Under the pieces are notes generated by a model. The model did no database searches and was not told the DNA's origin. It saw nothing but the letters and a program-made list of their open reading frames with translations. Of a DNA stretch of 64,000 bases, positions 9,190 to 44,170 are shown piece after piece (position 1 is the first letter of the stretch; every line of letters starts with the position of its first letter). Source of the stretch: Patescibacteria group bacterium (GTDB lineage Bacteria > Patescibacteriota > Minisyncoccia > Moranbacterales > UBA2206); contig JAKLIG010000002.1 of assembly GCA_022709735.1 (NCBI GenBank), positions 1,949 through 65,948 on the forward strand. Reading direction: 5' to 3'. A program made the translations under genes and the position numbers.

Positions 9190-11583
9190 TCATAATTCCC
9201 ACTTATCCCGCTTCTCTTGATCTTCCAACTTATCTTCATATCCAATATTTTCTTCCGGAGATGCCCCATAAACTTCTCGCGGTTTGGCACCGTCCGCCGG
9301 ACCAATTATTCCTTTTTCTTCTAAAACATCCAGAATTCTAGCCGCCCGCGCATAGCCGATTCTAAATCTTCTTTGCAAAAATGACGCGCTGGCTTTTTTC
9401 GCCCGGATAATTTCTTCTTCAATTTTTTTGATAAGTTCTTCGTCTTCCCCGTTTTCTTCTTGCGCCTTGAATTCCGTAATTTCTTTTTGAGAATTCTCTG
9501 TGATATCCGCGCCTTCCTCATTTTCTTTTTTATCCTCTTTCTTTTGAGCTTTGACAAATTTAACCACTCTTTTCACTTCTGATTCGCTCACGAAAACTCC
9601 TTGAATTCTTTTCGGTTTTGGAGAGCTGGTACTAAGATACAGCATATCCCCGTTTCCAAGTAATTTTTCCGCTCCACCCATATCCAAAATAGTTCTGGAA
9701 TCAATTTGCGTCGCGACTTGGAAAGCAATTCGCGTTGCGATGTTAGCCTTAATTAGCCCCGTGATGACTTCTACTGACGGTCTTTGCGTGGAAATAATCA
9801 GATGAATTCCAACCGCTCTTGCCATTTGAGCAATTCGGACAATCGCGCTTTCCACTTCCTTGCCATGACTGCTAATCATAAGATCTGCCAGTTCATCAAT
9901 CACGATTATAATGTAGGGCAAATTTTTGAGTTCCTCTTCATAAGTTTCCTTGGTTTCCAAATCAGTGCGTTTTATTTTATATCCCGATTTATATTTTTCC
10001 CGATAAGAATTTATATCTCTTGAGCCGACATCTTGGAGCAAGCGGTATCGTCTTTCCATTTCTCCCACCGCCCATTTCAAAGCATTGATTACCTTGCCAT
10101 TATCCACTACCACATCGGCAAGCAAATGTGGAATACCATTGTATAGCGAAAGCTCCACTCTTTTTGGATCAATCATGATAAATTTCAAATCTTCCGGAGA
10201 ATTTTGGTAAAGCAATGTCAGGATAATAGAATTTATTGAAACTGATTTTCCTGTTCCGGTTGAGCCGGCAATCATAAGATGAGGCATCTTGGCCAGATCT
10301 CCCAAGATACTGCTTCCGCTCACATCTTGACCGAGTGTTAAGGTCAAATTGGAAGTTCTTTTTCGAAATTGCGTATCTTCAATCATATCGCGAAGCCGAA
10401 CAATGAGCGATGACTTGTTGGGAATTTCAATGCCAATCAAAGATTGGCCGGGAATTGGCGCTTCAATTCGAATTGGATGAGCGGCGAGAGCCAAAGACAA
10501 ATCATTTTGGAGCGCCAAAATTTTCGCAATTTTCACTCCTACCGCCGGACGAAAACTATATTGCGTCACGGCCGGTCCGATTTTCGCCGCGCCTCTTTCT
10601 ACTTGGATTCCAAAATCTTTAAGCGTTTTTTCAATAATAGCAAAATTGCTTTCAATGTCTCCGCCTTGCGCCGTGCCGTATGATTTTTCCAGCATATCCG
10701 CCGGCGGGAAAGACCACTTGGAACCCTTGGAAGCTTTTGGAAATTTGAATTCTTTGGCCGGTGATTCCATGTCTAGCGAACGCCTTTCCATTATTTTTTT
10801 GGAATTTATTTCCATCTCCGGCTGAATTTGATTTTCAATTTGAGGAGAGACAAATTGGTCGCGCCCTTCGGCAAATTCAATTCTCCCGATATTTTTTTCC
10901 GCTTCCATTTCTTCTGATTTTTTTTCTTCCAATGGAAGTTTGAGCAAAGTTTCTTGAGCTTTTTCTTCAGGCTTTTTTTCTTCTGTTTTTTCTTCTTTAT
11001 TTTCTTCACCCGATTCTTCCTCGGTTTCTTCTTTTTTCAATCTCGAAAACAAATGAATGATGGAAAAATTGAAAGCGACAATTATTCCCAGAAAAAATAG
11101 CGCCAAAAGAACCACCATGCTTCCGGCCGAGCCTAAATATTTTTCCAAAAAATAACTTAACGCGTAGCCGACATATCCTCCGCCCTTGCCTTCGCCGGCA
11201 ATTTTGAGCATTTCTTTGGAAGCATAGAACCAATGAAAAATTCCGGTAAAGCTAAGAAGCGCTACCGCGAGTCCGATAAATTTAGTTATATAGAAAGCCG
11301 TTTCACGCCGAATGAGAAGCACGACTCCTGCGATAATCAAAAACACCGGCAGAATAAATTTAACCCAGCCGATTGAATAGGCGATCATTCTGTTCAGAAA
11401 TCCGCCGAAAGATCCGGCAAGGCCGAAAAAGCCCAAAACCGAAAGCGCCGCCAATGCGAAAAGAACCACGGCCACCGCGCTTCTTTTGGCGTCCCCCTTG
11501 AGGTTTCTTCTTGGCTTTCTTTCTTCCAAGCTTTCCTCTAAGTTATCTTCTCTCAAGTTTTTGTTTTTCTTGTGTCTCCCCAT
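9190..11583 (-). CDS. ftsK: DNA translocase FtsK/SpoIIIE
   Basis: N-terminal TM helices, charged linker, motor domain with HLMIAGSTGTGKS Walker A, C-terminal winged-helix gamma domain. Confidence 0.9.
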   Translation of the reverse strand: MGRHKKNKNLREDNLEESLEERKPRRNLKGDAKRSAVAVVLFALAALSVLGFFGLAGSFGGFLNRMIAYSIGWVKFILPVFLIIAGVVLLIRRETAFYITKFIGLAVALLSFTGIFHWFYASKEMLKIAGEGKGGGYVGYALSYFLEKYLGSAGSMVVLLALFFLGIIVAFNFSIIHLFSRLKKEETEEESGEENKEEKTEEKKPEEKAQETLLKLPLEEKKSEEMEAEKNIGRIEFAEGRDQFVSPQIENQIQPEMEINSKKIMERRSLDMESPAKEFKFPKASKGSKWSFPPADMLEKSYGTAQGGDIESNFAIIEKTLKDFGIQVERGAAKIGPAVTQYSFRPAVGVKIAKILALQNDLSLALAAHPIRIEAPIPGQSLIGIEIPNKSSLIVRLRDMIEDTQFRKRTSNLTLTLGQDVSGSSILGDLAKMPHLMIAGSTGTGKSVSINSIILTLLYQNSPEDLKFIMIDPKRVELSLYNGIPHLLADVVVDNGKVINALKWAVGEMERRYRLLQDVGSRDINSYREKYKSGYKIKRTDLETKETYEEELKNLPYIIIVIDELADLMISSHGKEVESAIVRIAQMARAVGIHLIISTQRPSVEVITGLIKANIATRIAFQVATQIDSRTILDMGGAEKLLGNGDMLYLSTSSPKPKRIQGVFVSESEVKRVVKFVKAQKKEDKKENEEGADITENSQKEITEFKAQEENGEDEELIKKIEEEIIRAKKASASFLQRRFRIGYARAARILDVLEEKGIIGPADGAKPREVYGASPEENIGYEDKLEDQEKRDKWEL

Positions 11584-30553: not shown

Positions 30554-31483
30554 TTATTTAGTTAATTCTTCGGTTAATTGCGGGATGATTTGTTTTTTTC
30601 GGGAAACTACTTTTTCCAAAAACATTATTCCATTTTCAATTTTTCCTCCAAAAACTTTTTCCGCAAGATTTTTTTCCGCTTCCGATATAATATAAAGATA
30701 GCTATTTTGTTTTATAATATCGACTGGCAGAAAAAATAAATAATCCTGTTTTTCTTTTTCCTTTTTCGCTTTTAATGCTTTCCTTATCTCTTCTTGTTTT
30801 TCATTCACACTTTCTGGACTAGTCGTTTCCCAAGTTCCAATTCCCACTTTGAATTTTCCCATTTCAAAATCTTTATGATCCAATGAAATTATTTCTTCCA
30901 CAGAAATTCCCTCAAGACTTGACTTAGCCTCAAACATTTCTGCTACAAAATTATCCACATCAATTTTTGCTGTTTCATTTAAAACTCCGGCAATTATTTT
31001 ATCTTCCTCGGTAGATGTCGGACTGGTAAAATTCAGCGTATCAGAAAGAATTCCGGCTAAAAGCAACTTTGCATTTGTTTCAGAAATTTTTTCATTTTTT
31101 TCCAAAAACATTTTTGCGATGATGGAAGATGTAGCGCCCATTTCTTCTGTTCGGCAAAAAATAGGCTTGTCTGTTTTTATAGAAAATTTATGATGGTCAA
31201 TTATATAATTGACTTTAGAAAAATCGATCTTCTCCGAAATCTGATTTGCTTCATTATGATCCACCAGCACAATATTTTCACCTTCCCCAATTTCCGAAAT
31301 CAATTCCGGAGCTTCAACATTAAATTTTTGCAAAATAAATTTCGTTTCATTATTAATTTCTCCCGCGCGAAAAGCCTTCGCTTCAAGCTTCAGCGCATTT
31401 TTGAAATATTCCGTTGCTACAATGCTCGACACAATTGAATCCGTATCCGGATTTTTATGTCCAATAACAATTAATTTTCCCAT
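30554..31483 (-). CDS. ppaC: manganese-dependent inorganic pyrophosphatase (family II, DHH)
   Basis: DTDSIVSS, DHN, DHH motifs and DHHA2 C-terminal domain. Confidence 0.8.
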   Translation of the reverse strand: MGKLIVIGHKNPDTDSIVSSIVATEYFKNALKLEAKAFRAGEINNETKFILQKFNVEAPELISEIGEGENIVLVDHNEANQISEKIDFSKVNYIIDHHKFSIKTDKPIFCRTEEMGATSSIIAKMFLEKNEKISETNAKLLLAGILSDTLNFTSPTSTEEDKIIAGVLNETAKIDVDNFVAEMFEAKSSLEGISVEEIISLDHKDFEMGKFKVGIGTWETTSPESVNEKQEEIRKALKAKKEKEKQDYLFFLPVDIIKQNSYLYIISEAEKNLAEKVFGGKIENGIMFLEKVVSRKKQIIPQLTEELTK

Positions 31484-31501: not shown

Positions 31502-32872
31502 TTATTCTTCTTTATTTTCCGCCTCTTTGGTTTCTTTGGTCTTTTTCGCCTTTTTCTCTTTTTTTTCTTCCTTAACTTCCTCGCTTATTTCTTTCTTGCT
31601 TTCTTCTGTCTCACTTACTTCTTCCTTCTTACTTCCCTCTTCTTTCTTGCCTTCTTCATCAGCCGAAACTTGCTCTCCACCGCTTGGCGCTAGACCTTTG
31701 ATGTCTATTTTCCAACCGGTAAGTTTGGCAGCCAGTCTTACATTTTGTCCGCGTTTGCCGATTGCCAAAGATAACTGGTCTTCTAAAACTGAAACCGAAG
31801 CTTCTTTTCTTTCTTCATTAATTTCCACCTTCAAAACCTTGGCCGGAGAAAGTGCGCCAGAAATAAATTTTGAAATATCATCATTCCACATTACAATATC
31901 AATTTTTTCTCCACCCAGTTCATCAATCACCGCTTGCACTCTGGTTCCTTTTTGCCCGACGCAAGATCCAATTGGATCAATGCCGTCTTCCGTGGAAGAA
32001 ACAGCAATCTTAGTTCGCTCGCCCGCTTCTCGCGCAATTGATTTTATCTCCACTGTTCCAGAAAAAATTTCCGGCACTTCAAGTTCAAACATTTTTCGCA
32101 CCATTTCCGGATTCGTGCGACTTAGGGTTATGCCAGGACCTTTTGTACCGGCATCAACTTTTTGCAAATATACTTTTATCCTTTGCCCAACTCGATAATT
32201 TTCTCTTTCAATTTGTTCGCTCGGGAAAAGAACGCCGACTGATTTTCCAAGATCAACAAAGATGTTCCGTCCTTCTACTCTTTGCACTACACCGTTTAGA
32301 ATTTCGCCTTCCTTATTTTTATATTCATCATACATCGCGTCTCTTTCCGCTTCGCGAATTCGCTGGATGATCACTTGCTTGGCAGTTTGGGCTGCTACTC
32401 GGCCGTAATCAGTTTTTTGTTCAAGTTCTGTTTCGATAATATCTCCCACCTTGGCATCCTTTTTTATTTTCTTCGCTTCCTCCAAAATCAAATCTCTTTC
32501 CGGATTAAATCTTGGCAATCTTTCTTCCGCGTTTTCTTCTGTATCAATTTGTTTTTTTTCTTCTGCCTTATCTGTTTTTTTATCCGCCTCATCCGTTTCT
32601 TCCATAAATTCCCGCATTGTTTCGTCCACGACTTCTTTTACCAGAAAAAATTTCGCTCCACCAGTAAGCTCATCAAATTCGCTACGGATATTTTGTCCGC
32701 GCTTGCCATAATCTTTTTTATACGCCGCCGAGAGCGCCGCCTCGATTGTTTCAACTACTTTTTCTTTGGAAATTCCTTTTTCCTCACAAAGAGCGGAAAT
32801 AGCCGAGCTAAAATCGCCCGTTCGCCCGCCGGAATTGTTTTCTTCGTCTTTTTTTGTTCTTTTCTTTGCCAT
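31502..32872 (-). CDS. nusA: transcription termination/antitermination factor NusA with Lys/Glu-rich C-terminal tail
   Basis: N-terminal domain, S1 and two KH domains (GQKGTRVQ, IGKRGQNVRLA). Confidence 0.85.
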   Translation of the reverse strand: MAKKRTKKDEENNSGGRTGDFSSAISALCEEKGISKEKVVETIEAALSAAYKKDYGKRGQNIRSEFDELTGGAKFFLVKEVVDETMREFMEETDEADKKTDKAEEKKQIDTEENAEERLPRFNPERDLILEEAKKIKKDAKVGDIIETELEQKTDYGRVAAQTAKQVIIQRIREAERDAMYDEYKNKEGEILNGVVQRVEGRNIFVDLGKSVGVLFPSEQIERENYRVGQRIKVYLQKVDAGTKGPGITLSRTNPEMVRKMFELEVPEIFSGTVEIKSIAREAGERTKIAVSSTEDGIDPIGSCVGQKGTRVQAVIDELGGEKIDIVMWNDDISKFISGALSPAKVLKVEINEERKEASVSVLEDQLSLAIGKRGQNVRLAAKLTGWKIDIKGLAPSGGEQVSADEEGKKEEGSKKEEVSETEESKKEISEEVKEEKKEKKAKKTKETKEAENKEE

Positions 32873-33049
32873 AAAATTTTATTTAAAAAATTAATTTTGC
32901 CTTATTTAAGCTTAATTTAACCATATTTACTGCCTATTTAATAAAGAAAGTTCGCTTTCCGCGAACTTTATCTGCTCTTCTAACTGATAAAACAATCTTA
33001 TCAATTATTTTATTTTATGTCAACTGGCAATATTTATAGCGGAAATCAT

Positions 33050-33772
33050 CTAAAATAATGCTCTTGTTCCGCGAAGCGCCGTATCAATTGCTCTAACAGC
33101 CACAAATCCAGAAAGCGCAACGATTATTCCAATAATTGAATAGGTCATATTTCTTTTGGCTATCTCTATAATTTTTTCATCACCTGACGCTAAAAGATAT
33201 TGTCCACCAGAAATAATAAAAGCAATTACAGTAATAATTCCGATAATCCTCAATAACCAATTCAAAATATTAACTAAAATGTTTTTTATTCCGGGTGAAT
33301 CAGGAAGCCCTGCTTTAGAAACAGAAGTAAAATCCAGTTCCCCATTAGCTGTTCCGACTGCTCCATTAGGATTATTACTATTGCCATTATTATTACTATT
33401 ATTTGCATTATTATTGCTATTATTTGCATTACCATTTCCACATACTCCAGTATCAGCACAACTCATATTATACCAATTACTAGGATCGCAATTAGCCTTG
33501 CTAGATGAACAACTAGCACCATTAACACAACATCCGACACTAGCCGTTTCGTTAGAATTAGAATTAGAATTAGAATTATTATTATTATTTACATTCACAC
33601 ACCCTACTTCAAGACAAGTTAATTCATACCAATTAGCAGAATTACAGCCATCTTTATTTGTTGAACAAGTCGTGGAGCAACAGCCAGCATTAGCTGAAGA
33701 CGCAATGGCGAAAACAGCCAAAAAAACAAACACTAAAAAAATTAAATTAAAATAGAATGAATATTTTTTCAT
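33050..33772 (-). CDS. pilin-like TM-hairpin protein paralog 1 with Cys-rich, Asn/Ser-rich ectodomain
   Basis: signal peptide; Cys-rich domain with NNNNNSNSNSNSN tracts; C-terminal conserved TM-hairpin LLASGDEKIIEIAKRNMTYSIIGIIVALSGFV shared with the four neighbouring genes. Confidence 0.5.
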   Translation of the reverse strand: MKKYSFYFNLIFLVFVFLAVFAIASSANAGCCSTTCSTNKDGCNSANWYELTCLEVGCVNVNNNNNSNSNSNSNETASVGCCVNGASCSSSKANCDPSNWYNMSCADTGVCGNGNANNSNNNANNSNNNGNSNNPNGAVGTANGELDFTSVSKAGLPDSPGIKNILVNILNWLLRIIGIITVIAFIISGGQYLLASGDEKIIEIAKRNMTYSIIGIIVALSGFVAVRAIDTALRGTRALF

Positions 33773-33794
33773 TTTTTACCATTAAATAGCTTAG

Positions 33795-34172
33795 TTAAAA
33801 TGAACTAGAATTAAGCATATTCTGCGCCGCAGCAAAGACCACATAACCAGCTAACCCCACAATTACTCCAATAATCGAATACATCATAGCTTTTTTAGCA
33901 TTTCCTGCTCGCGTTTCATCTCCGGCCGCCGTAAGATACATGATTCCAGCAATAATAAATCCGATAAGAGAAACCACACTCAAGACTCCCAAGAGCCACT
34001 TAAGAATATTTTCTATTATTCCAAAAATTGTTCCGGTCGGCAGGCCATAATTATCATCTTGAAGTCCGTCACTCTTTGGGTCTCCAAGGCCAAAAAGAGC
34101 TAAGGATACTTTTGGCATAAATAGCATTGTCCCAACATAAATTGCTATTAATATTTTTTCTATTTTTTTCAT
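33795..34172 (-). CDS. pilin-like TM-hairpin protein paralog 2 (VirB2/TrbC-like architecture)
   Basis: signal peptide plus MYLTAAGDETRAGNAKKAMMYSIIGVIVGLAGYVVF...NMLNSSSF. Confidence 0.5.
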   Translation of the reverse strand: MKKIEKILIAIYVGTMLFMPKVSLALFGLGDPKSDGLQDDNYGLPTGTIFGIIENILKWLLGVLSVVSLIGFIIAGIMYLTAAGDETRAGNAKKAMMYSIIGVIVGLAGYVVFAAAQNMLNSSSF

Positions 34173-34236
34173 ACTTTTTTTGTTCCATAAAATAAATTAT
34201 ATTTTATGAAATTAATTTTTATTAATAATTATTATT

Positions 34237-34617
34237 TTAAAACTTCGCCGTTGCATTGAGCAAGGCTTGTGCTGCCTTAAAAAACACAAATCCTGAAAAT
34301 CCCACAATCACTCCAATAATTGAATATGTCATAGCTTTTTTAGCATTTCCTGCTCGCGCTTCATCTCCGGCAGCGGTAAGGTACATAAGTCCAGAAATTA
34401 TAAAAGCAATAAAACAAATTACCTCCAGTGTTCCCAAAAGCCAAACGACTAAATTAGAGACGATACCAAAAACTGATGAGTCTGGAAGATTAAATTGTTT
34501 CAAATCATCAACCTTCCATTGAGCAAAAATTTTTGCAGGGAAAAATGAGATGGCTGAAAATATTGCAAGTGATAGAATTTTATTTCTAATTTTTATTTTC
34601 ATAATTATTCGCGTCAC
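34237..34617 (-). CDS. pilin-like TM-hairpin protein paralog 3
   Basis: signal peptide plus MYLTAAGDEARAGNAKKAMTYSIIGVIVGFSGFVFF...LLNATAKF. Confidence 0.5.
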   Translation of the reverse strand: MTRIIMKIKIRNKILSLAIFSAISFFPAKIFAQWKVDDLKQFNLPDSSVFGIVSNLVVWLLGTLEVICFIAFIISGLMYLTAAGDEARAGNAKKAMTYSIIGVIVGFSGFVFFKAAQALLNATAKF

Positions 34618-34769
34618 TTCCGCACCTGCCTGCCAGCAGGCAAATTTAAACAGAAATGGCAGAAAAGAAAAATTTACATTTATAATTATACCACGCTTTT
34701 AAAAAAATAAAAACAGCCCGTAATCCACAGGCTATTTTTATTTTATTTTGAAATTTCAAAATACGCTTT

Positions 34770-35126
34770 TTAGAATCCAGCGTTAGAATTAAGCATATTT
34801 TTAGCAAAGCTAAGGGCTACGAGTCCAGCTAAAGCTACAATTACTCCAATAATTGAATACATCATCGCGTTTTTAGCTGTACCTATTCTCGTTTCATCTC
34901 CAGCTGCTGTAAGATACAAAATTCCGGCAATACAAAATCCAATCACGCCAACAATCCCAACAGCTGCCAAAAGCCAGTTCATTATATTGGTAATAATTCT
35001 CATAATAGTACTACTAGGAAGATTTGTTCCCACTGGTGGATAATATTGCGCGCCAGCCAAAGCAGGCATCAAAAGAAGTGACCCTGAAATTATAGAATAT
35101 GCAACTGATTTTATTTTATTTTTCAT
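34770..35126 (-). CDS. pilin-like TM-hairpin protein paralog 4
   Basis: signal peptide plus LYLTAAGDETRIGTAKNAMMYSIIGVIVALAGLVAL...NMLNSNAGF. Confidence 0.5.
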   Translation of the reverse strand: MKNKIKSVAYSIISGSLLLMPALAGAQYYPPVGTNLPSSTIMRIITNIMNWLLAAVGIVGVIGFCIAGILYLTAAGDETRIGTAKNAMMYSIIGVIVALAGLVALSFAKNMLNSNAGF

Positions 35127-35194
35127 CTTGCACCTCCTTTCATAAATAACATCTTAATTTTTCTTTATTTTTTATATTCTCTCGCCTTTTATCT

Positions 35195-35950
35195 TTACGA
35201 TACGCTGATAAGACTGGAGATTTGCCTTACAACTACAAGCGCGCTAAGCGCTACTACAATTCCAATTATAGCATAGGTAATTATTTTTTTTGCCGTATCT
35301 ATTCTTTTTTCATCTCCATAAGCTGTAAGATACATTCCTCCGCCGATGACTAAAGAAATTATAGCAATAATTCCAAAGATTGACAATAAGAAATTCAAAA
35401 CATTAACTGCAATCATTTTTATAGTAAGTGTTGACCCGGTGCCGGCAACATCTGGTCCGGCCTGAAGAATAGCCAAAATTTCATTAAGAAATGCTGGCGC
35501 TGCCAAAGCAATCGCTAACCCGACTACTGCGCCTGTCCAAGTTTGTTTGGCGCGCGTTACCATCTTTTCGTTTCCGGCCGATGACATATACATAATTCCG
35601 CCAATAATCATAAATATCACTGCGATAATTACAATTATTCCTCTAAGCTTGCTCATAAGCGAAGTGAGCAACTCTTGAACAGAATTGATTTGAAGAGGAT
35701 TAGCAAATGTTGTAGTAGATGAGTTCGCAGTAGCCGGATTTATATAACCAGGGCAAGTAGACATAGTTATGCAAGCTGCCTGATCAAAATATGTCGTACC
35801 CGCTCCACAATCCATAGCGGAATTAGCACTTGAACAAACTCCCATGGCAGTAGCAAAGCAACAGCCTGCTGTTTGCGCTTGAACCAATTTAGTATTCAAA
35901 AAAAATCCTGCAATAAAAACTAATATAGTAATGATAAAATATTTTTTCAT
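35195..35950 (-). CDS. pilin-like protein paralog 5: Cys-rich ectodomain plus two tandem TM-hairpin units
   Basis: signal peptide; AGCCFATAMGVCSS...C...C...C; two repeats of the MY(M/L)(S/T)AxG(N/D)EK...AK hairpin. Confidence 0.5.
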   Translation of the reverse strand: MKKYFIITILVFIAGFFLNTKLVQAQTAGCCFATAMGVCSSANSAMDCGAGTTYFDQAACITMSTCPGYINPATANSSTTTFANPLQINSVQELLTSLMSKLRGIIVIIAVIFMIIGGIMYMSSAGNEKMVTRAKQTWTGAVVGLAIALAAPAFLNEILAILQAGPDVAGTGSTLTIKMIAVNVLNFLLSIFGIIAIISLVIGGGMYLTAYGDEKRIDTAKKIITYAIIGIVVALSALVVVRQISSLISVS

Positions 35951-35973
35951 ATTTATTTTTATATTTTAAAAAA

Positions 35974-37383
35974 TTATAAGTTATTCACCCTTTGCGCGGC
36001 AGTTTTTAGCGCATCAGAAACTGTCGCTTGGCCTTTGTTCACACTATCAATCATTTCTGCAAAAATTGATTCTACCGAAGTTGAATCTTTTTGCCGCCAG
36101 CTTTTAGCAATTAAATTTCCTGCTGCAAAAACTCCAACTTTCGGATCAGTTTTTTGCAATTCGATCAAATCCCGCCTCGCTGCTGGTTGGCCAGTTTTTG
36201 CAAGAAATTTTACAGCTGGATCAAGCTTTAGATTGGCTGATTGCCCAACTCCCGAACCAGAAGAAGTACCAGCAAAAGTCCCATCCGGTTTAGTCGAAAG
36301 ATATGTCAAAAACCACCAAGCTTCTTTTACTCTGGTATCATTACTTATCGTTACAGTACTTTGCAGAGTTTTAGAAATCGAATTTTTTGCAACTACGAAT
36401 CCCCAATAGTTAGCAAAATTAACCGGCGCCTTATTTTCAAATTGCGGGACTGGAGAAACAGCAAAATTTAGCTTTGGCGATTTTGCCAAAATTGTATCAA
36501 CATTCCAAGAATAATTTATCATCATTGCCGTAAGCCCTTCCGAAAAAGCATCGATGGAATAATGCATATTTGGATTCCATGTATAGTTAAAAGATTTAGA
36601 ATTAGCAAACTGCGTATAAAAATTAAGAGCTTCCTCGCCGAGATAAACTCCATTTGGGTTTGAATCTGTTTTCGAAAAAGAATCGTCGAAAGCTACCCGC
36701 CCCATATCATCAGTCATTTCGGTTCCGTTTTGAAGCATTATGAGATTTAATATATCCGTAGAACGATTTATATTATAAGCAGTTCCAATAGCTGCGCCAG
36801 AGTGAATTATATTTCCAAAAGAATCTACACTTTTTAGTTTTATCACATCGTCGATAAATTCATTCCAATTTTTTGGAGGAGTCGCAATCCCAGCCTGATT
36901 CAATAGATCTTTATTATAAAAAAGTGCTAAACTATCCACTGAAAGTGGCACAGCATAAATTTTATTTTCTTTGATAAAATCCTCTGCTACTACATCTATA
37001 AAATTATTTCTAAATTTTTGTTCATTTATAATTCTTGGATCTACTTCAGACGGCGCTGGAGCAATTTTATCAGTAAAAGAAGGTAGCCATAGATTATTCA
37101 CCATAAAAATATCCGGCCCCTGGCCTGATGCCAGTGCATCCATCAGTTCTTTTCGATAGGTGTCTATGGGAATTTTTTTATAAGTAATTTTAGAAACATT
37201 TGGATTTATAAGACTATAATTATCAAAAATTTCTCTCATTGCTGTTTCCTGGTCTAGCGGTCCCCAAATTTCAAGATCTAAATCATATTTGTGTGTATTA
37301 GCCGGCTTGCATCCGCAACCAGAAATAACTAAAACTACTGTCAAAAAGGAAATTGCTAAAATTATTTTTTTTATTTTATTCAT
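35974..37383 (-). CDS. extracellular solute-binding protein (ABC-type, family 1) lipoprotein, orphan
   Basis: lipobox ISGCGC; SBP-like fold hallmarks (GPDIFMVNNLWLPSF); no permease or ATPase nearby. Confidence 0.55.
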   Translation of the reverse strand: MNKIKKIILAISFLTVVLVISGCGCKPANTHKYDLDLEIWGPLDQETAMREIFDNYSLINPNVSKITYKKIPIDTYRKELMDALASGQGPDIFMVNNLWLPSFTDKIAPAPSEVDPRIINEQKFRNNFIDVVAEDFIKENKIYAVPLSVDSLALFYNKDLLNQAGIATPPKNWNEFIDDVIKLKSVDSFGNIIHSGAAIGTAYNINRSTDILNLIMLQNGTEMTDDMGRVAFDDSFSKTDSNPNGVYLGEEALNFYTQFANSKSFNYTWNPNMHYSIDAFSEGLTAMMINYSWNVDTILAKSPKLNFAVSPVPQFENKAPVNFANYWGFVVAKNSISKTLQSTVTISNDTRVKEAWWFLTYLSTKPDGTFAGTSSGSGVGQSANLKLDPAVKFLAKTGQPAARRDLIELQKTDPKVGVFAAGNLIAKSWRQKDSTSVESIFAEMIDSVNKGQATVSDALKTAAQRVNNL

Positions 37384-37387
37384 AATT

Positions 37388-37945
37388 TTATTTTGTTATT
37401 ATCCATCCAAAATGAAAACTGCTTACTTTTATTTTTTTTAAAATGGCTAATTTATTTTTTTGAATTATATCCGAAAGTTCATCTTTGGAAACTCTGTTTT
37501 TTATTTCTGGACCTAATGACCTGTCTAGCTCTTCCCAATCGATAAAAAGAATGCATCCTCCCTTTTTTAAAATTCTTTCCGCTTCCATAAAAACTTCCAA
37601 CTTTTTCTGACTTTGGTAAAGCATATTAACAATCAACACCCAGTCTATGCTTTCTTTCCCAAGTTTTGTTCCTTTTTCTTCTTCCAAATTAACTCTACGC
37701 GCATCAATATTATCAAGTCCCATGATTTTCGCCTGGCTTCTCACTGCTTCAACTTTTGCTTCTAATATATCCAGGGCATAAACCACTCCTCCTTCGCCAA
37801 TTTTTTTCGCCACAGGAAAAGTGAAAAATCCCGTCCCGCATCCAAAGTGAGCAACTCTCATTCCTGGCAAAATTTCCAAACCAGAAATTATCTCTTCGGG
37901 ATTTAGAAATTTAACTGCATAATTTGTACTTTTATCAAAAGTCAT
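37388..37945 (-). CDS. class I SAM-dependent methyltransferase
   Basis: motif I VAHFGCGTGFFT, then ALDILEAKVE and ILFIDWE. Confidence 0.7.
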   Translation of the reverse strand: MTFDKSTNYAVKFLNPEEIISGLEILPGMRVAHFGCGTGFFTFPVAKKIGEGGVVYALDILEAKVEAVRSQAKIMGLDNIDARRVNLEEEKGTKLGKESIDWVLIVNMLYQSQKKLEVFMEAERILKKGGCILFIDWEELDRSLGPEIKNRVSKDELSDIIQKNKLAILKKIKVSSFHFGWIITK

Positions 37946-39397: not shown

Positions 39398-41173
39398 ATG
39401 ACTGATACAATTCTCAAAAAAATATCCTTGCCAAGTTCAATCACTGTCAAAAAATTCAGCGAGGTTTTAAATATTCCCTTAAATGTTGTCATCACCGAGC
39501 TTATGAAAAATGGAATTCTTGCAACCATCAATGAAAAGATTGATTTTGAAACGGCATCGATTATTGCTGGAGACTTAGGCTTTGAAGTTTCCGAGGAAAT
39601 TTTAGAAGCCGGAGAAAAAATGACCATTGAAAAATTAAATGAGGAACTTAAGAAAGAAAAGGAATCTTCTGATATTCTCAAGAGTCGCGCTCCAATCGTC
39701 ACAATCTTGGGACATGTTGACCATGGAAAAACTACCCTTCTTGATACCATTAGAAAAACTAATGTGGCGGCCAAAGAATCGGGCGGAATCACCCAGCACA
39801 TCAGCGCCTATCAAGTCAAGAAAAAGGGCCAACTCATCACCTTTGTTGATACGCCTGGACATGAAGCCTTTAGCGCTATGCGCGAACGAGGCGTGAGCAT
39901 TGCTGATATCGCCGTTCTGGTTGTCGCCGCTGATGACGGAGTACGCCCGCAAACCAGAGAAGTTATTGAATATCTTCTGGCAAAAAAAATTCCGACAGTT
40001 GTTGCGATAAATAAAATTGACAAACCTTCGGTTAATATTCAACGAGTGAAACAAGAATTGGCTGATGCTGGAATAGTTTTGGAAGAATGGGGCGGACAAG
40101 TGCTCTCTGCTAAAATTAGCGCCAAACAAAATATCGGCATTGATGATCTCTTGGATAATATTCTTCTTATCAATGAAGTGGAAGACTTTAAGGCTAATTA
40201 CAAAAGAGATCCTTTGGGAATTGTTTTGGAATCACATCTTGATCCGCAAAAAGGACCGATTGCCACCGTGCTTATCAAAACTGGAACACTCAAAGAAGGA
40301 CAAGATGTCATTGCCGGCGCAAGTTTCGGCCGAATAAAAAGAATTGAAGATTTCAGAGGAACAAGGATCACCGAAGCTGTTCCGGGAACTCCTGTAAGCA
40401 TTATCGGTTTTCATTCTGCTCCAAGCTCCAATGATATTTTGCAAGCTTCGCCCGAAAAACACCAAGGAAAATCAAAATCACAATCCGGACTTTTGAATAA
40501 TTCCGAAGAAGAAGCTTTTAGCTCTCAAAAAATGATGCGCGTTATCGCTTCGGAGAAAATAAAAAGATTAAATATAATTTTGAAATCAGATGTGCAAGGA
40601 TCGCTTGAAGCGATTGGACAGATTTTGGGCGAAATAAAATCCCAGGAAGTGGCGATTGATTATATCGGAACTGGCGTCGGCAACATCACTGAATCAGATG
40701 TCCGCTTGGCTGGAAGTTCCAATGCTACTATTTATGGATTCAATGTAGAAATTACGCCGGTCGCCAAAAGAATGGCTGAGACTGCCAAAGTAGAAATCAA
40801 AAATTATAAAATTATTTATGAACTCGTGGAAGATATAAAAAACAAATTGATTGCCATGCTTCCTCCGATCATCGAAAGAACTGATTTTGGAAAAATGAAA
40901 GTTTTGGCGCTTTTCAAAACTGGAAAAGGCGACATGATTATCGGCGGAAAAATAACAAACGGGAAGATGGTTAACAAATCCTTGATTGAAGTTATGAGAA
41001 ACGATGCAATTATCGGACAAGGAAAATTAAACAATCTTCAAGAAAATAAAGTTAATGTGGACGAATGCGTTTCTGGTAAAGAATGTGGAATAACCTTTTT
41101 GGGTTCGACAAAAATAAAAGAAGGCGATGTATTATTGAGTTATAAAGAAGAAGTAAAGAAGCAAACACTTTAA
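39398..41173 (+). CDS. infB: translation initiation factor IF-2 (short N-terminus)
   Basis: G domain GHVDHGKTTLLD...DTPGHEAF...NKID; C-terminal beta-barrels. Confidence 0.9.
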   Translation: MTDTILKKISLPSSITVKKFSEVLNIPLNVVITELMKNGILATINEKIDFETASIIAGDLGFEVSEEILEAGEKMTIEKLNEELKKEKESSDILKSRAPIVTILGHVDHGKTTLLDTIRKTNVAAKESGGITQHISAYQVKKKGQLITFVDTPGHEAFSAMRERGVSIADIAVLVVAADDGVRPQTREVIEYLLAKKIPTVVAINKIDKPSVNIQRVKQELADAGIVLEEWGGQVLSAKISAKQNIGIDDLLDNILLINEVEDFKANYKRDPLGIVLESHLDPQKGPIATVLIKTGTLKEGQDVIAGASFGRIKRIEDFRGTRITEAVPGTPVSIIGFHSAPSSNDILQASPEKHQGKSKSQSGLLNNSEEEAFSSQKMMRVIASEKIKRLNIILKSDVQGSLEAIGQILGEIKSQEVAIDYIGTGVGNITESDVRLAGSSNATIYGFNVEITPVAKRMAETAKVEIKNYKIIYELVEDIKNKLIAMLPPIIERTDFGKMKVLALFKTGKGDMIIGGKITNGKMVNKSLIEVMRNDAIIGQGKLNNLQENKVNVDECVSGKECGITFLGSTKIKEGDVLLSYKEEVKKQTL

Positions 41174-43729: not shown

Positions 43730-44170
43730 GTGACAATTTGCACGAAAGACCGGGAAGAATTATTTGGAGAAATTAAAAATGGAGAAATGGTTTTGAATGA
43801 ATTGGGAAAAATCGTTTTTAAAAATTTAAAAAATATTCCATATTATTTTGAAAATATAAATTTGGATAAATTTATTGTGATGCCAAATCACGTTCATTTA
43901 ATTCTTGAAATTAACAAAAATATCGTAGGGGCAATTCATGAATTGCCCCTACAAAAACGGCGGAATATGTTGATTCCGAAAATAATCGGCAAATTTAAAA
44001 TGTTATCCGCCAAAGAAATAAATATTCTGGCAAATAATTCTGGGAATCCATTATGGCAACGAAATTATTACGACCATATTATCCGAAACGAAATTGAATT
44101 AAACAAAATTCGCGAATATATATTGGAAAATCCGAAAAATTGGGAACGCGATAGAAATAATATTGTGTAG
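43730..44170 (+). CDS. IS200/IS605-type HuH tyrosine transposase, REP-associated (RAYT)-like, N-terminally truncated (possible pseudogene)
   Basis: HuH motif FIVMPNHVHLILE and catalytic-Tyr motif WQRNYYDHIIRNE; TICTKDREELFGEIKNGEMVLNELGKIV matches this family. GTG start only; upstream in-frame region has no ATG and is occupied by the 20-bp palindrome. Contains palindrome copy C (43925-43952). Confidence 0.7.
   Translation: MTICTKDREELFGEIKNGEMVLNELGKIVFKNLKNIPYYFENINLDKFIVMPNHVHLILEINKNIVGAIHELPLQKRRNMLIPKIIGKFKMLSAKEINILANNSGNPLWQRNYYDHIIRNEIELNKIREYILENPKNWERDRNNIV
43925..43952. repeat. REP-like palindrome GTAGGGGCAATTCATGAATTGCCCCTAC (copy C, inside the RAYT-like CDS)
   Basis: perfect 28-bp palindrome coding VGAIHELPLQ. 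Confidence 0.85.

Follow-up and report, generated by a model that had tools for sequence, protein, structure and literature searches.

A 64-kb stretch of genomic DNA from Candidatus Moranbacteria (Patescibacteria, class Paceibacteria), referred to below as the window, was analyzed. Reading of its open reading frames (ORFs) revealed an array of five consecutive genes on the minus strand, at positions 33050–35950, which are separated by gaps of 22–152 bp and code for proteins of 251, 118, 126, 125, and 240 amino acids (aa), numbered here pilin 1 to pilin 5 in the order of transcription. In a Pfam profile search, all five proteins scored 33.9–59.6 bits against the T4SS_pilin family PF18895, above its gathering score of 26.6 bits, and public precomputed annotation assigns the same family to all five genes. 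We consider it probable, at about three chances in four, that the five genes code for VirB2-like pilins of a type IV secretion system (T4SS) and belong to a seven-gene operon.

Shared module and architecture of the five proteins

Alignments revealed a common module, in which an amphipathic stretch is followed by a hydrophobic helix, a loop, a second hydrophobic helix, and a short tail. An earlier note on this DNA had proposed five consecutive minus-strand genes with such a shared module, and this is borne out by the ORFs and the alignments. The identity of the modules to the 118-aa protein is 26–55%, and their loops conform to the consensus Y-x-x-x-x-G-[DN]-E-x(5)-A-K. The loop motif had been described as invariant; only Y, G, E, and A-K are shared by all six modules, and the first unit of the 251-aa protein, for example, carries the variant YMSSAGNEKMVTRAKQ. 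A tail of the form NMLNSxxxF, attributed to every protein, was present in two only. As read from the sequences, every N-terminus begins with a basic stretch, which leads through a hydrophobic core to an AxA-type cleavage site (predicted sites ANA↓G, VQA↓Q, AGA↓Q, IFA↓Q, and SLA↓L). In the AlphaFold2 (AF2) model of the 118-aa protein, a signal helix precedes a two-helix hairpin (helices 40–73 and 78–115), while the model of the 251-aa protein contains a small beta module at residues 29–62 and four long helices that make up two hairpins. Sequences and models thus present the layout of VirB2-like pilins, i.e., a predicted cleavable signal peptide, followed by two hydrophobic helices with a short polar loop.

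Sub-threshold matches were obtained to other VirB2-like families, namely PF04956 (TrbC/VirB2, gathering score 27.9 bits), DUF4134, and the pilin family of mycoplasma integrative and conjugative elements (ICEs), NF045849 (cut-off 40 bits). Among at least 120 listed orthologues of the 251-aa protein, most carry precomputed matches to both PF18895 and PF04956, and orthologues are named pilin or TrbC/VirB2 by their sources. Since many of these orthologues carry PF04956 matches, the window proteins are related to PF04956 at the superfamily level. Proteins identical to those of the window are named “pilin” (HRY82435.1 and HRY82438.1), “TrbC/VirB2 family protein” (HRY82439.1), and, for a gene next to the array, “extracellular solute-binding protein” (HRY82440.1) by NCBI; all four come from a Candidatus Moranbacteria metagenome-assembled genome (MAG). 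The proposal that these are VirB2/TrbC-type hairpins in an episymbiotic, small-genome bacterium of the candidate phyla radiation (CPR) therefore agrees with PF18895 membership, with the NCBI names, and with the linkage to PrgI and VirB4 in relatives described below, while the belief that the module falls into no recognized named family was mistaken, as it belongs to PF18895.

Other membrane protein families were considered and rejected. A class III leader (G↓F/M-T-L-x-E or G↓xxxxEY), which type IV and Flp pilins require, was not seen in the five N-termini, and no type IV pilus (T4P) or Flp family appeared among Pfam or NCBIfam matches at E ≤ 1. The profile checks that the earlier note had called for thus returned PF18895, a PF04956 score below cut-off, and no Flp or T4P match. 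No holin or MscL family, either of which would have spoken for an unrelated identity, was matched at E ≤ 1, and profiles of transporter families (ECF, TctB, and others) all gave E > 0.01; identities as holin, MscL, ECF, TctB, or small subunits of tripartite ATP-independent periplasmic (TRAP) transporters were rejected, since no profile match was significant. A PDB profile search with the six-module profile produced only spurious matches. The 118-aa pilin, when compared by tblastn with 72,556 plasmids, gave no match, and hence no direct link to annotated conjugative plasmids.

The five proteins differ in their N-terminal parts. Pilin 1 consists of a signal peptide, one six-cysteine module, and two hairpin units in tandem, with PF18895 matches in two separate stretches, as had been proposed for this protein. 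Pilin 5 consists of a signal peptide, two six-cysteine modules with Asn/Ser-rich linkers between, and one hairpin. The pattern of the six-cysteine module is GCC..C..C..NWY..C..C; there are 12 cysteines in the 240-aa protein, 6 in the 251-aa protein, and 0–1 in each of the three small ones. Asparagine makes up 40 of the 240 residues of pilin 5, which is the only protein with poly-Asn tracts, so that of the Cys/Asn-rich ectodomains claimed for both larger paralogues, the cysteine part holds for both and the poly-Asn part for the 240-aa protein only. Orthologues of pilin 5 in relatives are 415–459 aa long and have larger Cys-rich ectodomains. A strain variant of pilin 5 from another sample has 238 instead of 240 aa, lacks exactly one Ser-Asn unit, and is otherwise identical.

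To compare the array with its relatives, 80 related loci from species-representative genomes were fetched with an alignment of 251-aa orthologues; the closest were Moraniibacteriota MAGs. Score matrices were dominated by their diagonals in four of these loci (L005, L010, L015, and L020), where each of the five paralogues has a one-to-one orthologue in the same order, with a score ca. 1.3 to 4 times that to any other gene of the array. Since the best scores fall on the same positions, the duplications appear to be older than these species, with each copy retained, and we infer that the five paralogues are old and non-redundant. The related loci yielded 388 pilin ORFs, of which 92 contain two modules and 90 have at least four N-terminal cysteines. 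Double modules and Cys-rich N-termini are commonest at the start of the array, and the last gene also often codes for a Cys-rich ectodomain. Moranbacteria have numerous full-length orthologues with a double hairpin, in which the cysteine columns are conserved.

These data bear on the proposal, made for VirB2 of Bartonella and Anaplasma and suggested for Patescibacteria in PMC12102498, that paralogues of this kind are interchangeable variants of one pilin that serve antigenic or host-range variation. The divergence of the modules noted above, the variable length of the last pilin ectodomain between species (240 versus 415–459 aa), and the Ser-Asn repeat that differs between strains would all fit such variation. 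However, one-to-one orthologues in the same order in four species loci, and architectures of distinct kinds (double hairpin, minimal, Cys-rich), each tied to its position in the array across the related loci, argue for old subfunctionalization rather than a swappable pool, and we regard interchangeable variants as distinctly unlikely here.

Proposed operon layout and conserved partners

The array is preceded on the same strand by genes of a solute-binding lipoprotein and a methyltransferase (Table 1). The gap between the methyltransferase and lipoprotein genes is 4 bp, and that between the lipoprotein gene and the first pilin gene is 23 bp. Because of this spacing and of the conservation described below, we infer that positions 33050–37945 make up a seven-gene operon, composed of the methyltransferase, the solute-binding lipoprotein, and five pilins. 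Downstream, the array is flanked by nusA (31502–32872, minus strand); the flanking genes had thus been named correctly as nusA, a solute-binding lipoprotein, and a methyltransferase. A terminator-like hairpin between pilin 5 and nusA is likely the 3′ end of the operon, as judged from the sequence; terminator-like sites are no more numerous across the region than expected by chance, so that the hairpin is suggestive by its position only, and a promoter-like site is also present between the last pilin and nusA. In public gene calls, pilin 3 starts from the ATG at 34602 and is 121 aa long. Plus-strand ORFs over the array (e.g., 33156–33755) were rejected as low-complexity antisense artefacts.

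Table 1. Genes and sequence elements of the pilin locus (window coordinates).
Feature	Position	Strand	Details
Methyltransferase, class I, S-adenosylmethionine-dependent, 185 aa	37388..37945	-	Pfam Methyltransf_31/25/11; likely first operon gene
Family-1 extracellular solute-binding lipoprotein, 469 aa	35974..37383	-	PF01547, PF13416; lipobox ISGC; NCBI HRY82440.1
Pilin 1, 251 aa	35195..35950	-	PF18895 59.6 bits, two stretches; NCBI HRY82439.1
Pilin 2, 118 aa, minimal signal peptide and hairpin	34770..35126	-	PF18895 43.5 bits; NCBI HRY82438.1
Pilin 3, 126 aa from GTG	34237..34617	-	PF18895 37.9 bits
Pilin 4, 125 aa	33795..34172	-	PF18895 38.9 bits
Pilin 5, 240 aa	33050..33772	-	PF18895 33.9 bits; NCBI HRY82435.1
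Hexanucleotide repeat TTAGAA x4.5, perfect	33552..33578	.	Tandem Repeats Finder; encodes (Ser-Asn)n, pilin 5 linker
Terminator-like hairpin	32947..32969	-	9-bp stem, 4 GC pairs, T-rich tail; between pilin 5 and nusA

The solute-binding lipoprotein matches PF01547 with 102 bits and also PF13416, and its nearest PDB relatives are maltose/sugar-binding proteins; by these matches, it is a MalE-like protein. A homologous gene ends no more than 1.2 kb upstream of the first pilin gene in 58 of the 71 related genome loci with enough upstream sequence, and in most of the remaining 13 it overlaps, is divergent, or lies within ca. 3 kb. In the reverse test, the solute-binding protein was used as a query against metagenomes of the Joint Genome Institute (JGI). 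Pilin genes followed in 20 of 21 relatives with at least 35% identity and at least ca. 600 bp of sequence downstream, while two family-1 binding proteins of 23% identity had no pilins behind them. The methyltransferase gene lies directly upstream of the solute-binding gene in most of the closer Moraniibacteriota loci, and the order infB / DUF4446 / methyltransferase / solute-binding protein / pilins / ... / nusA / tig recurs across Moraniibacteriota loci. The solute-binding lipoprotein is thus a conserved operon partner of the pilin array. No ATP-binding cassette (ABC) permease or ATPase that could serve it was recognized in the operon or the window. The description of this protein as an orphan therefore holds only in the sense that an ABC partner is lacking nearby, because its adjacency to the array is conserved.

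In bacteria, nusA and infB usually share one operon. In the window, nusA (minus strand) and infB (39398–41173, plus strand) are on opposite strands, with the pilin operon, a tRNA-Ser gene, a 147-aa ORF without a family match, and a DUF4446 gene between them, and this split arrangement is kept across Moraniibacteriota loci. In some relatives, a gene of an IF2-like GTPase, whose best match in the window is infB, lies on the same strand between the solute-binding gene and the array (L097:6459-8246, L099:6459-8246, L100:5481-7268, L038:5353-7239, and L095:3042-3284); L038 contains a second infB-like match elsewhere in the locus.

Link to secretion machinery and proposed function

A search of the window by tblastn with Moraniibacteriota VirB4, PrgI, and neighbour-protein queries found neither VirB4 nor PrgI (best E 0.09), and neither ORF reading nor precomputed Pfam labels revealed VirB4, PrgI, VirB6, or a coupling protein in it. 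The three approaches agree with the earlier statement that the window contains no secretion ATPases. VirB4 is located within 10 kb of the array in only five of the 80 related genome loci. These results weigh against the assignment of the array to a T4SS pilus, and so do several others: the best PF04956 match of a window protein (the 240-aa one) reached 15.2 bits (E 0.026), below the cut-off; fold and PDB sequence searches yielded no specific match to solved conjugative pilins, since a helical hairpin matches thousands of structures; the confidence of the two AF2 models is moderate (pLDDT 71 and 66); and according to reviews, no pilus has yet been seen on any patescibacterium, PMC12857230 speaking of a “potential” only.

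The FtsK protein of the window (797 aa, 9190–11583) was considered as a coupling protein and rejected, as it has the full chromosomal FtsK_4TM/alpha/gamma architecture. No T4SS gene was found in the ca. 3.8 kb of the contig that precede the window start.

Linkage of the pilins to VirB4 or other translocon genes is absent from the window and present in seven relatives (L035, L046, L080, L081, L083, L093, and L094). In two Moraniibacteriota loci, L035 and L046, the genes follow in the order methyltransferase, solute-binding protein, pilin(s), PrgI (PF12666), a 231–241-aa protein, and a VirB4-like ATPase of 605–608 aa that matches PF19044, PF12846, and PF11130. The same contiguous order was observed in two metagenome loci that were found via the solute-binding protein (L093 and L094, the contig of the latter stopping inside the 231-aa gene). 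In L080, which has no methyltransferase, the solute-binding protein is followed by pilins, a large extra protein, PrgI, the 231-aa homologue, and VirB4. The Moraniibacteriota VirB4 copies compared are about 76–78% identical to each other. Four genomes whose arrays are detached from virB4 at the locus (L008, which has the same five-gene order as the window, L016, L029, and L038) are scored VirB4-positive in their rows of Table S1 of PMC12102498, and of the 15 Moranbacteria genomes considered from that table, 13 are VirB4-positive. Because relatives link the module to PrgI and VirB4, and because the four relatives with detached arrays are VirB4-positive, the cognate T4SS machine is likely encoded elsewhere in this genome.

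The broad conservation of the binding protein next to the array (58/71 and 20/21 loci), as opposed to the rare adjacency of VirB4 (5/80), might also suggest that the hairpin proteins act independently of any T4SS, as membrane components of a complex for uptake or sensing that is served by the binding lipoprotein, i.e., a non-ABC transporter or receptor. The operon and window contain no ABC permease or ATPase, and JGI labels some orthologues TRAP transporter small subunit. TRAP systems use DctP-type and not family-1 binding proteins, and the label is therefore probably an artefact of the hydrophobic helices. Since PF18895 scores are above the cut-off while transporter families are not significant, and since the module of binding protein and pilins is contiguous with PrgI and VirB4 in L035, L046, L080, L093, and L094, we find such a T4SS-independent complex very improbable.

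Arrays of VirB2-like pilins are known from other Patescibacteria. Wang et al. 2023 (PMC10633639) reported that the T4SS cluster of Southlakia epibionticum, which is essential, includes a series of predicted pilins; in the rows of their tables for this cluster, SEML1_0014 to 0016 are assigned to PF18895, and the six-gene array SEML1_0014-0019 is marked as essential for epibiotic growth. Quinonero-Coronel et al. 2025 (PMC12102498) applied PF18895, PF04956, and other profiles to 3,035 Patescibacteria genomes, and found VirB2-like pilins in 1,948 VirB4-positive assemblies, in only 1,135 of which they are near virB4, as well as 441 arrays of 2–11 pilin genes in 383 assemblies. A 2025 review (PMC12857230) describes patescibacterial T4SSs as unique among monoderms in their “potential” to elaborate pili and speculates on uptake from the host. 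The five contiguous PF18895 genes of the window fall under the array definition of PMC12102498 (2–11 pilin genes, in tandem or with one non-pilin gene between). The suggestion that the locus represents an uncharacterized system was therefore incorrect, since such arrays have been published (PMC10633639, PMC12102498, and PMC12857230): the array is a further member of a known family with a known tandem layout. A literature search found no specific description for Moranbacteria.

The window array shares with published patescibacterial arrays (S. epibionticum SEML1_0014-0019, the TM7x “Sec secreted array”, and those of PMC12102498) the PF18895 family, tandem divergent paralogues, and a monoderm CPR host, and its size is inside the published range of 2–11 genes. 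Unlike them, it is located between nusA and infB and not beside virB4, is preceded by a family-1 solute-binding lipoprotein and a methyltransferase, and has among its pilins a fused double one and two whose ectodomains are Cys-rich. Terms for solute-binding proteins are absent from the main texts of PMC12102498 and PMC10633639, pilin fusions and Cys-rich pilin ectodomains are not mentioned in PMC12102498, and no family-1 binding protein appears among the rows considered for the S. epibionticum T4SS cluster. Like the VirB2, TrbC, and TraA pilins of diderms, the window proteins are small and have a signal peptide, two hydrophobic helices, and a short charged loop; unlike them, they come from a monoderm host, have short Sec-type leaders with an AxA site instead of long ones, show no sign of cyclization or acetylation, and include N-terminal disulfide-rich domains and a tandem fusion, and no VirB5-like gene was recognized beside the window array. 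The mycoplasma ICE pilin Mbov_0395 / MMCAP2_0565 (NF045849), from a wall-less or monoderm host, shows weak similarity over the whole hairpin (20.8–34.4 bits), but the window proteins stay below the 40-bit cut-off, and the mycoplasma gene is on a mobile element whereas the window array is a conserved chromosomal locus. The VirB2 paralogues of Bartonella and Anaplasma, as cited in PMC12102498, resemble the array in tandem amplification and divergence of pilins in a host-dependent bacterium; those paralogues are read as antigenic or host-range variants, while each of the window paralogues is conserved across species. Finally, the product of 35974–37383 resembles the binding proteins of MalE-type ABC importers in PF01547 and PF13416 matches, sugar-binding relatives, and a lipoprotein signal, but in contrast to such importers, the operon lacks permease and ATPase genes, and T4SS pilins are co-located with it across Moraniibacteriota.

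If the five proteins are VirB2-like pilins, their assembly can be outlined as follows, with topology and polymer steps taken from established knowledge of VirB2 and TraA pilins. Each pilin would be exported by the Sec pathway and cleaved at its AxA site, and the two helices of the mature protein would form a hairpin across the membrane, its ends outside and its short charged G-D-E...A-K loop on the inner side. The pilins would then be extracted by a monoderm-type (MPF-FATA-like) T4SS whose genes lie elsewhere in the genome, and polymerized into a pilus or wall-spanning conduit directed towards the host cell, presumably a helical polymer in which the loops line the lumen and both termini are exposed at the surface. 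The three small pilins may be shaft subunits. If the filament is built like known conjugative pili, the disulfide-stabilized modules of pilins 1 and 5 would be outside it, which would fit recognition of the host surface. The fused double pilin would supply two protomers at once and might nucleate or cap the fibre, and the sugar-type binding lipoprotein may be a dedicated accessory factor.

The same genes could also be T4SS-associated without forming an extended pilus; they would then make a short stalk, a channel lining across the thin wall, or a translocon scaffold, with the Cys-rich ectodomains and the binding protein as a fixed docking platform. Gram-positive T4SSs are generally without pili (PMC12102498 and PMC10633639), filaments have not been reported, with the review mentioning a “potential” only, and the covalently fused double pilin is conserved and would appear unusual for a helical homopolymer. 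The homologous VirB2, TraA, and TrbC proteins, however, are filament subunits, and five conserved, differentiated paralogues fit a division into major and minor pilins; we therefore judge the absence of an extended pilus to be rather unlikely.

A further possibility, which we put forward tentatively and hold to be somewhat doubtful, is that the Moranbacteria array and the maltose-type binding lipoprotein (with the methyltransferase in closer relatives) are one functional unit. The lipoprotein would be a receptor/adhesin or a substrate-capture protein, binding glycans of the host envelope, or sugars that stem from the host, at a heteropolymeric pilus composed of the fused double pilin, three shaft pilins, and the Cys-knot-decorated pilin. 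If true, this would be the first concrete genetic hint of a patescibacterial T4SS as a docking or uptake device and not an exporter of DNA or effectors. Patescibacteria account for much of bacterial diversity and rely on host cells, and their T4SS with its pilin array is the only one of its kind for which an essential role in growth has been demonstrated (PMC10633639). The locus does not represent a new kind of system; its main interest is that one large order keeps a constant set of five differentiated subunits, with a fused pilin and Cys-rich ectodomains among them, in genetic linkage with a sugar-type binding lipoprotein, and that the coupling of binding protein, methyltransferase, and pilins is conserved. 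What the binding protein binds, and how it contacts the Cys-rich ectodomains of the pilins, offers a testable handle on docking to versus import from the host.

Other genes of the window and related loci

The remaining window contains ordinary CPR housekeeping genes (ychF, rpsF, ssb, efp, recA, ftsK, rpoBC, RNase Y, clpP, tig, nusA, and infB) and 11 tRNA genes. Between nusA and tig, at 30554–31483 on the minus strand, there is a gene of a soluble DHH/DHHA2 (family II, PpaC-type) pyrophosphatase. In four related Moraniibacteriota loci, the same position is occupied by a 660–683-aa ORF of one cluster (L032:8356-10407, L007:16291-18282, L066:10518-12539, and L040:17392-19377), and the L032 ORF, which was scanned, matches the membrane H+-pyrophosphatase family PF03030 with 893 bits. 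The sequences suggest that one pyrophosphatase gene has been replaced by a non-orthologous one while the locus stayed the same. A 146-aa ORF at 43730–44170 on the plus strand resembles an IS200/REP-type Y1 transposase; the public call is 127 aa long and has a faint PF01797 match.

Several related loci have the Moraniibacteriota gene order and are nevertheless titled [quoted passage not shown] (L011, L012, L019, L035, L057, L059, L062, and L072-L074), while L071 is titled “Bathyarchaeia archaeon”; such titles probably result from wrong taxonomic labels or from contigs binned wrongly. The 200,697-bp ENA contig that includes the window (L085) starts, shortly before the first window position, with a 1262-aa gene (L085:2-3787, minus strand) that is cut by the contig end and hence has no Pfam record; it is followed by two 115-aa genes, one of which has a 23S rRNA intervening-sequence protein domain. 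In another Moraniibacteriota locus, a UvrD/PcrA helicase (L050:2832-6062, minus strand) contains an intein splicing domain after its N-terminal helicase domain (residues 260–612).

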